From: Eledone cirrhosa
Taxonomy: Eukaryota
Reading direction: 5' to 3'
DNA length: 64,000 nt
NCBI GenBank assembly: GCA_964016885.1
Contig: OZ024742.1
Coordinates: forward strand, 211,296,001-211,360,000
Shown in pieces: positions 9,001 to 12,000 of this stretch. How positions within the stretch are numbered: position 1 is the first letter of the stretch; each line of letters opens with the position of its first letter. The notes below the pieces were generated by a model. That model had not been told where the DNA came from and made no database searches. It was given only the letters and a program-made list of their open reading frames with translations. The position numbers and the translations under genes were made by a program.

Positions 9001-12000
9001 TACAAAGCTCAAGTAAGACACAAATGAAATACTGCTCCTACATTTGGGATGGTATTGCTGTTAGACACACAAACATCTGGCACACCCTACCCTCTGCTAA
9101 CAGACTTATTGGCATGGAAATAGTCACCAATACAATTTAACTTGTGGCCCATTGATATGATGTCTCCTCCTTTGCCTTTTCTATTGCAACCACAATAACA
9201 CATGCACCATAGAGCATGCTAATTATGTACAACCTACATAACATCACACATATTGTTTTTCCTTATCAGGTCACAAACTAAACATTTTTTTCCAATATTT
9301 CCTTGGAAACATTTTACTTTGAAAAAAATGCTTGTTTTGCATTGTTGATAAATTTATAACAGTGTGGAATGAAAACAGTTGTTTAAACAATTATAATTCT
9401 ATTTCAATATTACAATATTTTTGTTTTGACGATTTTGCATTCATTTCATATACTGAATTAGTAGGCACTGAAAATATAAATAATTCAGATATGCATTATT
9501 GAAGAAAATACTTTATACTCTTCTCTTAACCACTCAAATTGGAAGTGTGAGTAGTCTTTATTTTCAGCTAGGTTGAAGCAGAATCAAGCAGAGTAATGTA
9601 TAACAGTTAAAAGGATTTGCTAGAGGAACAATACCTAAATTTCATATTTATTATTTCATAAGTATTTTCAATCTAAACACTCCACTCTCAAAGCATAAAC
9701 AAAACAATTCTATTAGACAACCACCATCATTTTCTGTCTGCTTCTCTTGCTGGCATTGGATGAACAGATTGTCTCAGTCCAAGACCAGACAGATCTAGGG
9801 AATCTCACTATGATTTCTACTGTTAGATGCTTTTCCTAACACGAACCACAGTGTGTACTGGGTGTGACTTTTTGGTGGCACCAGCACTAACACTTTATAA
9901 AGTGCACTGGGAGAATTTTATCATGGCACCAGCACAATACACATGGGGAAAAATGAAGCCCTTAAAAATGCATTATCTTATGTTGTACTTTTGTTCAAAT
10001 ATGTCAAACTCTCTAACACCAATCCAACAAATTAAAGAAAGGGAGAAAATTTATTGTCTTAGAAATGTGAAGACAACCTAATTACAGTAGTTAAATGTTC
10101 TACTGTCTTAACCATCTCTCAGTAACAACATGCTTTAAATATATCTAAATTCTAAAATTTCTATATAAAATACAAGTTCAAGCCACCATATTTAAGGTGA
10201 GTAAAAAATAATGTTTTTCAATCGATAATACAACTGCAATGAGGATAAAAGTCGATGGCATTAATGAAACTTTGTTTCAAAAAGGGTGTGGGATAGAATG
10301 TGAAATTTCAAGTGACCAAAAATTAATAGATATGTAAAGCTAAGTCTGGTCTTACTCCCATTCATAATCTCAAATTAATTCTTAGTCAATTGCGATTTCA
10401 AGAGTCATCTCCCTTACACTTTTTGAGGTTATTTTCATTAAAATTTAATTGTTTCTACTTTTGGCACAAGGCCAGCAATTACCCAATGCATTACTGGTAC
10501 TTTATTTTATCGACCCCGTAAGGATGAAAGGTAAAGTTAACCTCGGCGGGATTTGTTAAGTTAAACTCTATGCGTCAAGGCATGGCGTCCGACCCTCTAC
10601 CGATACTGCCAATCCACCAATGCCCTTAGCATTTACATTACTTTATATTTACTATTGTATTTTCGCAGTAAATACTTTATCTCACATAATATCAAAGCTA
10701 CGAGATTTTGATATTTATTTTGAGAACAATACCTTAACATCGGCATGAGCGGCCAGTTATGGCTGGTTTGAACAGAAAGAGGTGAGAAAATTTTGGCTGG
10801 ATACAGCTGGTTTGAATGGTTAAGGCAATTAAACTTATTTTCAACTCACGCTCTTAAGTAGACCAGCCTGCACCTAAATATATATTCTTCATGTAGAAAG
10901 CACCTAAGGCAAATTTTCTAACGGCATTATATAAAATATATACAGAAATAACTATTGACTTTATCGAAACCTAATATTCTATACTAAAACTATTATTAAA
11001 TATAGTTAGCTAAATGCTAGAAGGAAAATATTAAGTGAAGAATATAATGATTTATATCTTCATTTTCTAGCTACCACTTTACCTAACAATTACATTATAC
11101 TACTGTATCTGTGCCATCAATAATGATAGCAAATATGTTACTTTATCTTACTTAAATGTATTGAAAATGATTTGTTTTTAAATATTGACATGATTGCTCT
11201 TACATTACAAATTTTTCTGTTTCTTCTATGTCTCATAGCGTATGCATTAAGAGATCTTCTTCTATTCCGTTCTTCTTCAGTTTCTTGTTGAAGTTTTTGT
11301 GATTGTCTTTCTCTCATGCTTGTCCTCCTTAAATTTTTTTTTTCTGTACTTTCCTTTCGATATCTCTGTGATGCCCGTTCCCTCATATCTGCCCTCCTTA
11401 AATTTGCTTCTTCTTCAGTCTCATTTTGGAGTTTCGTAGCTTCATGCAGTCTTGATTGTGTTCTTATTGTATTTAATCTTTCCTGTGAGGCACTGGAATA
11501 TTTTTGCCTACTAATTTCTCTTCTTGCTTCTAATTGTTCTTGAGATAAGTGAGATCGCTGCCGTCTTTGTCGTTCCCTTGTTAATCTTCTCTTCCTTTCA
11601 AGAGGAGTCTTCACAATGGGTGAATTAGAAGTATATAAAATATATATACAGAAATAATTATTTTTGACTTTATCAAAATATAATATTTTATACTAAGGAA
11701 AATATCAAACGAAGAATATAATGATTTATTATCTTCATTACATTCCACCTTAACAATTACATTATACTAATGTATTTATGCCATCAATAATGACAGCAAA
11801 TATGTTTATCTTACATAAAGTTAAACTATAGAAAACTATGTAAACATCATGCGATTAGAAGCCAGTGGTGGAATTTGAAAATTGAATTGAATTAGTAGCT
11901 TCACTGTATTTTATGACTACAGAAAATAGTCTAATAATAACAGAGTGTATAAGAACCCTAGAATTTAAAAAATGAGCATAGGAATGCTAATGCCCATTTT

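Follow-up and report, generated by a model that had tools for sequence, protein, structure and literature searches.

The window, by which we mean the whole 64,000-nt stretch of Eledone cirrhosa DNA analysed here (contig OZ024742.1, from a genome of 3.0 Gb), carries ATF7IP on its minus strand, as seen by direct translation and by tblastn of Octopus isoforms, the exons of which map in order from 62804 down to 2925. The 795-nt, phase 0-0 exon at 28812..29606 (minus strand) contains a putative SIM-like motif and is here called the SIM exon, a label that we take over from an earlier, sequence-only reading of this DNA; the region is 90-91% identical to Octopus ATF7IP and 71% identical to a cuttlefish protein. 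The next exon, at 8484..8640 (minus strand), encodes a linker and the start of the FN3 domain and lies inside one spliced contig of the sequencing run X4; two FN3 exons follow at 6641-6756 and 3083-2922 (span 2922..6756, minus strand). A separate exon of about 95 codons at 30880-31164 (minus strand) is alternatively spliced, being present or absent among the Octopus isoforms.

The intron between the SIM exon and the linker exon contains a near-full LINE remnant in sense orientation (16205-19046, minus strand; 8 frameshifting indels) and an AT-rich minisatellite (20315-20727; about 14 copies of a 27-32 bp unit). At 15253-16204 (minus strand) lie fragmented transposase frames, which from their translation we take to be Tc1/mariner-like. 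The sequence-only reading had claimed that the same intron holds a stop-free frame on the ATF7IP strand, and this is borne out: the frame runs from stop to stop at 11138..11692 (minus strand, 184 aa). Four sense-strand frames in the intron are longer. The candidate cassette within it, at 11204..11608 (minus strand), is a phase 0-0 unit of 405 nt, or 135 codons, that fits between the end of the SIM exon at 28812 and the exon starting at 8640; both this geometry and the splice dinucleotides, an AAG acceptor and a GTAAGA donor, are as that reading had described them.

A CTAAT motif resembling a branch site lies 20 nt before the candidate acceptor (11609..11632, minus strand), with no other AG between the two; the pyrimidine tract is weak (14/20), and the sequence-only reading had itself called this acceptor weak. 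A second in-frame acceptor candidate, a TAG with 16/20 pyrimidines at 11693..11716 (minus strand), would start the exon at 11692 and give a cassette of 489 nt, or 163 aa. The candidate donor GTAAGA lies at 11198..11203 (minus strand). Both cassette sites were supplied by the transposon itself and also occur in dead copies: the acceptor AG falls in the second codon of the ancestral transposon ORF and recurs in the broken copy L013, and the donor is found in L013 and in the tail of the tandem copy W2, with GTAACA in L005. In-frame site pairs are not rare in this intron, where three different GTRAG donors close stop-free phase 0-0 cassettes of at least 150 nt.

STPR-Type Repeats

The frame had been credited with an exact 23-residue periodicity. 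This holds for its last four units (aa 40-131), which start at aa 40, 63, 86 and 109, and not for the two degenerate units before them, which are about 21 and 19 aa long. The self-identity of the frame peaks at lags of 23 and 46 (0.19), with values of 0.04-0.13 at other lags. The Pfam search for STPR repeats that the sequence-only reading had proposed gave no match: the STPRs family (PF21107, gathering score 27) does not match the frame even at E<=10, and the nearest relative, L015, scores 16 bits on it. A custom STPR profile, for which 23 units from elsewhere were used and the frame's own sequence was left out, finds the frame as its sole match below E 1 among 4897 frames (E 8.5e-5). The best sequence match in the PDB is the STPR domain of FMBP-1 (E 0.012, aa 62-130). 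An AF2 prediction from a 4-sequence alignment (pLDDT 91, pTM 0.44) shows single helices broken every 23 residues in a helix-linker-helix arrangement (42-61, 65-84, 88-107 and 111-134), as predicted for the zig-zag of an STPR domain, and the VIA fold search ranks 5d23_A, again the FMBP-1 STPR domain, first of 48,161 chains (rmsd 2.2 over 64 aligned residues), with a Z of 7.0 (next 5.6) that lies in the range this tool calls weak for helical proteins. A Foldseek search returned no match. The ESM Atlas (best 0.88) provides a lead only, its rank 2 being a cluster with 26% STPR members (recognition 1916).

Glu1, Thr/Ser2 and Arg9, which are named as conserved STPR residues in the paper on Bombyx mori FMBP-1 (PMC4856987; PDB 5D23; PF21107), recur in three of the four exact units, the exception being the one that starts at aa 40 (A1, S2 and I9). 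At the FMBP-1 DNA-contact positions compared (Arg6, Leu10, Met13, Tyr16, Ala17, Arg20 and Leu21), Arg/Lys6 occurs in two of the three good units, Met13 in two, Ala17 in one, Arg/Lys20 in all three and Leu21 in one, and Leu10 and Tyr16 in none. The cassette thus shares with the FMBP-1 domain the 23-residue unit, the predicted helix spacing and the conserved residues of three units, but it falls below the Pfam cut-off, lacks Leu10 and Tyr16, begins with two units of other length and gives no sign of purifying selection (see below). The STPR-type identity proposed for the frame is supported by the sequence and fold searches, both of which place FMBP-1 first; judged from sequence and model, the frame is a divergent STPR-type repeat for which DNA binding is predicted only.

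Helitron Origin and Genomic Copies

Helitrons end in a 5' TC and a 3' hairpin plus CTRR, and their proteins carry Rep and helicase domains. A Helitron origin of the frame, as originally suggested, is supported by its relatives. L015, the closest protein match in the genome after the decayed copies, is 41-43% identical to the frame, and its repeats lie about 0.9 kb upstream of a Helitron_like_N domain (E 1.5e-30); seven more loci of its family have this domain, two of which overlap one place. The protein P0035 is collinear with the frame from about the first residue (alignment from residue 3) and starts Met-Glu-Thr-Pro-Gln-Glu-Arg-Lys-Arg-Arg-Leu. Its repeats are followed by a CGEM..C..C.AKHF..CC..GK motif, which we take to be a Helitron-type cysteine motif and which also comes next in the DNA relatives L005 and L006. 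Because of the collinearity with P0035, the continuation into this motif in L005 and L006 and the position of L015 near Helitron_like_N, the cassette corresponds, on homology, to codons 1-135 of a Helitron ORF. Its ancestral start has been lost: codon 11614-11612 is GTG in the frame and ATG in L006.

In contrast to Helitron Rep/helicase proteins, the copy in the ATF7IP intron is missing the cysteine motif, Rep and helicase, and tblastn with seven Helitron Rep/helicase pieces from the same genome gave no Rep or PIF1 helicase match in the window. In their place is an AT-rich element tail (10928..11203, minus strand), partly common to L002, L008, L011 and L013 and 78.5% identical to the tail of W2. 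W2 (12407..12758, minus strand; 70.5% identical) is a head-to-tail sister of the cassette element and is broken by stops and 5 frameshifting indels, in agreement with what had been said of the neighbouring copy. The W2 tail (11632..12182, minus strand) is interrupted by an imperfect palindrome of 208 bp (11882-12089), 78% self-complementary and possibly a MITE.

The sequence-only reading had offered as its fallback a young Helitron fragment, that is, a frame still open through recent insertion from an active element. The DNA relatives of the frame are 65-76% identical, so the element is old. Among the 7/7 DNA candidates scored, no coding-part copy exceeds 76% identity, and a search with the tail (4/4 candidates scored) gave at best 82-90% identity over 42-136 nt. 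By contrast, the LINE in the same intron has many genomic copies at 91-92%. The deleted structure, the 21% divergence of the tail from its tandem sister and the near single-copy depth at the locus in two DNA-like runs (18-34 vs about 10-20) point the same way. The cassette does have the shortest branch in its family tree, and the genome searches could miss close copies, as they pass over frequent words and score top candidates alone; even so, we consider recent insertion highly improbable. With respect to copy number, equally intact copies were not found (1 open of 8 aligned), although Helitron fronts of other STPR families are plentiful, with at least 176 and at least 180 matches. In the same genome, the open frames L017:1357-2031 and L025:1429-2070 contain STPR arrays that score strongly (60 and 58 bits), and no Helitron enzyme frame of at least 100 aa was seen within 1.5 kb of either; these are possibly host STPR genes.

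Age, Frame Survival and Selection

The cassette is the sole open copy of the 8 aligned, having neither a stop nor a frameshifting indel. Among the 7 others, L011, which is the shortest, is free of non-triplet indels but contains stops, and each of the remaining six shows 3-9 such events. By maximum likelihood the cassette branch is 0.11 (others 0.17-0.47). Measured against the majority of the other copies it is 0.148, an overestimate that comes from the star-shaped consensus, and polarised against W2 it is 0.07-0.105, with an upper bound of 0.146; we therefore quote a range. The cassette has 20 branch changes and W2 31, a difference that is not significant (p=0.16). If the Octopus clock given in PMC13282606 applies (a distance of 0.09 for 25 My), about 0.07-0.11 substitutions/site would correspond to roughly 20-30 My.

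How readily a frame would stay open over such a branch was estimated from a rate of 0.072 frameshifts per substitution (20/279, from five LINE copies, one of them from the same intron), which agrees with the rate estimated from the dead copies, together with simulated stop gain. The chance of a neutral open frame is 0.028 at a branch of 0.06, 0.010 at 0.08 and 0.002 at 0.11. Neutral survival of the frame, at about 0.002-0.03, is therefore unlikely.

The residues tell a different story from the frame. All of the selection tests rely on paralogue-based polarisation and small counts; L015 was left out because it aligns poorly at the DNA level, and L008 shares the tail only. Relative to the other copies, the cassette has 11 synonymous and 34 non-synonymous substitutions of its own (pN/pS 1.08), which is indistinguishable from the pooled dead copies (1.05; Fisher p=1.0), and polarised against W2 it has 3 and 17 (pN/pS 1.88). 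With these counts, no purifying selection on cassette residues is seen. In simulations, the share of runs with a pN/pS of at least 1.08 was 62% for omega 1, 17% for 0.6, 2.7% for 0.4 and 0/150 for 0.2, so that an omega of 0.4 or less is unlikely and 0.6 is compatible with the data. The repeat region is also no more conserved between W2 and the cassette element (75% identical) than the non-coding tails. Thus the frame was kept while its residues drifted, which reflects either luck combined with the reader's selection of an open frame, or selection on the frame only. Since the ancestral ATG is lost, the frame, if it is being maintained, would have to be spliced in order to be translated.

Expression and Splicing

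Four runs from one study contain this stretch, none of them recorded as RNA. X1 and X2 give contiguous contigs across the locus, without differences. X4 bridges introns, linking 3080 with 6638 and 6753 with 8481, and on this basis alone we judged it RNA-like. Contig 17 of X4 (depth 66) runs through the FN3 exons to 8640 and then continues for 799 nt, which is the 795-nt SIM exon plus 4 nt common to two upstream exons; the main transcript therefore skips the cassette. The end of this contig is the exact point at which the two upstream ATF7IP exons diverge.

A second X4 contig, of 254 nt and depth 4.1, aligns over its whole length at 11354..11607 (minus strand), inside the frame. It covers 254 of the 405 nt of the cassette and ends 1 nt from the predicted acceptor, and within this one RNA-like run it shows neither a splice junction nor a loose end. 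It is the only X4 contig of the locus in 10850-11880. The other record there is a paralogue of 426 nt (depth 7.7) that touches 11151-11171 and 11815-11838 with 21 and 24 letters; it comes from another locus resembling the element tail, of which another copy thus seems to be transcribed. X4 has no cover between the second acceptor (11692) and 11620, its gap at 11204-11353 proves nothing by itself, and a further stretch of the intron is thinly covered as well (9440-9776, depth 0.79). In a Logan contig, letters shared by two paths are retained until the paths part, as contig 17 shows, and the methods passages of PMC12424806 describe no trimming of overlaps. The end position of the 254-nt contig is suggestive, since it falls at a site predicted beforehand, but a spliced branch should bring letters of the upstream exon with it, contigs cannot show transcript ends, and the data come from one sample; we treat the position as a weak hint. 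For the expected junctions 28812 to 11608 and 11204 to 8640, then, X4 yields partial cover of the cassette and the skipping form, but no junction.

These data bear on the reading that the cassette is a minor alternative exon, spliced in some tissue or stage through the element's own sites, so that an insert of 135 aa (163 aa with the acceptor at 11692) separates the SIM region from FN3. Selection would then chiefly maintain the frame and constrain its residues weakly, and AT-rich DNA is a possible target of the insert, contacted through the major groove. In favour of such an exon are the improbable survival of a frame that has lost its ATG, the branch-like motif with a first-AG acceptor in phase 0-0, and the RNA-like contig confined to the frame; the match of the predicted model to the STPR fold and the 17% of simulations that tolerate an omega of 0.6 are compatible with it. 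However, the contig lacks the junction letters that Logan contigs keep, covers no more than 254 of the 405 nt, and has a length and depth that also fit one or two fragments read several times, and the pN/pS of at least 1 and the absence of the Leu10 and Tyr16 contacts from all three good units count against it as well. We regard a minor exon as possible but doubtful.

An alternative last exon from 11608 to the stop at 11138, in which the repeats replace FN3, or a separate short transcript, fits the data less well. Past the cassette donor the frame does run 21 codons further to a stop, AATAAA occurs at 10719 and 10506, and an FN3 swap would be viable in principle, FN3 being dispensable for SETDB1 nuclear localisation in mouse cells (PMC7706265, abstract). 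On the other hand, X4 has no contig of the locus between 10850 and 11353, the frame has no ATG of its own before cassette codon 75, and amino-acid constraint was not seen. This arrangement is accordingly very unlikely.

Comparison with Other Cephalopods

The ATF7IP cluster examined holds 30 proteins. Six are fragments without the junction; the other 24, which are from Octopus (18) or cuttlefish-like (6), read across it. The cassette insert is present in 0 of these 24 full-length isoforms, which counts against a minor exon but is weak evidence, since the species concerned are more distant and may predate the insertion. Weak, too, is the lack of a cassette homologue in protein collections, where 24 candidates of similar length and 542 longer ones gave nothing at E<=0.01, and these protein searches yielded no orthologue. 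HMMER over 1.84 billion representatives gave 5 matches at 40-47% identity, none of which is an ATF7IP fusion. The best, P0031 from a Logan contig, is an 831-aa degenerate-repeat protein with no Pfam match, of which block 583-710 is 42% identical to the cassette; it may be a repeat protein of a host genome that arose from the same Helitron front.

Discussion

The ATF7IP intron does hold an old remnant of a Helitron STPR region, and the frame of this remnant is unusually intact. The proposal of an exonized, transposon-derived DNA-binding insert stands as to its STPR-type repeats and Helitron origin, but its use as an exon is not borne out: no junction in the one RNA-like run, no insert in 24/24 isoforms and no residue constraint were found, and the splice sites recur in dead copies. 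On balance we lean slightly towards the cassette frame being a passive relic of an old Helitron that survived by chance and is at most leakily spliced. An internally deleted Helitron would have come to lie in sense orientation in the ATF7IP intron, with the frame as its N-terminal STPR-type repeats; a non-autonomous derivative, consisting of the repeats and the AT-rich tail, was presumably inserted or duplicated in tandem. This copy would then have drifted by about 0.07-0.11 substitutions/site and lost its own ATG, keeping splice-like sites because the element carried such sites anyway. Pre-mRNA, or infrequent cryptic splicing that has no effect, would explain the thin RNA-like cover. With so many STPR Helitron fronts in the genome, one of them should, on rare occasion, have survived by luck, and the open copy was picked for being open. 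Against a relic stand its being the sole open copy of 8 (p of about 0.002-0.03), the lost ATG and the X4 contig confined to the frame. In our judgement, openness raises the odds of an exon by about one to two orders of magnitude and the RNA hint raises them a few-fold, from a low prior; a functional binding domain is made less likely by residues that look neutral.

Host-transposase fusions are among the closest known parallels to an exon of this kind. In the passages searched of 10.1101/2020.05.07.082677, KRABINER, SETMAR and PGBD3-CSB use transposon-borne splice sites and have dN/dS<1, and no Helitron case occurs there. Like these, the cassette derives from the putative DNA-binding part of a transposon, sits in sense orientation within a chromatin-regulator intron and has splice sites that the element already carried, but the fusions have fusion transcripts and dN/dS<1, whereas here no junction was found and pN/pS is at least 1. 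A second precedent involves the same host gene: according to PMC3212892, an intron of bird ATF7IP holds a Crypton tyrosine-recombinase ORF that is 97% identical between zebra finch and chicken, with splicing predicted and no transcript seen. The intact transposon ORF in an ATF7IP intron is common to both cases; the STPR cassette, by contrast, drifts at a neutral-looking rate. Both precedents lend some plausibility to a minor exon, as do STPR-type N-termini on Octopus ATF7IP models. We found no work joining STPR with Helitron, or ATF7IP with octopus, in the open-access literature, which lacks most subscription journals, and the Helitron passages of PMC12062965 make no mention of STPR.

In mouse, contact of ATF7IP with DNA is made by proteins that its FN3 domain binds, this domain serving as a hub for DNA-binding partners (PMC7706265, abstract). 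If the cassette were spliced and functional, a transposon would have supplied this cofactor with a DNA-binding arm, in animals whose genome is rich in repeats; the SETDB1 silencing complex would thereby acquire its own DNA-reading arm from transposons that it may silence, an invertebrate counterpart of the KRAB-transposase fusions. We think it rather improbable that the cassette gives a functional DNA-binding ATF7IP isoform. If it is a relic, it is one among hundreds of Helitron fronts in the genome.

Finally, Octopus RefSeq models of ATF7IP, which are gene predictions, carry two different STPR/Helitron-type N-termini. It would be a considerable surprise if octopod ATF7IP had captured Helitron STPR arms several times independently, as the internal cassette and as two Octopus N-terminal exons; the conserved STPR-bearing N-terminal isoform in these models is perhaps the more testable lead. 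P0014 (XP_036363343.1, O. sinensis X1) and P0019 (XP_052828669.1, O. bimaculoides X3) have an N-terminal extension at aa 1-113 that scores 31.1 and 29 bits on PF21107, above the cut-off, and is 95% identical between them (107/113), with 97.2% identity over the rest of the protein. Aa 1-112 of P0014 gave 0 matches in the Eledone cirrhosa genome among the best 150 of 1984 candidates scored, and neither Octopus N-terminus was found in the window or the 140 kb upstream of it by tblastn or the custom STPR profile. The start of L025 resembles the Octopus ATF7IP STPR N-terminus. In P0002 and P0020 (O. bimaculoides X1/X2 models), aa 1-208 are a Helitron front, with 23-aa repeats and a cysteine motif, from a family with at least 180 matches in the Eledone cirrhosa genome. 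P0003 and P0021 have a short form of it, and its first 27 aa are also found as a short N-terminus in O. sinensis.
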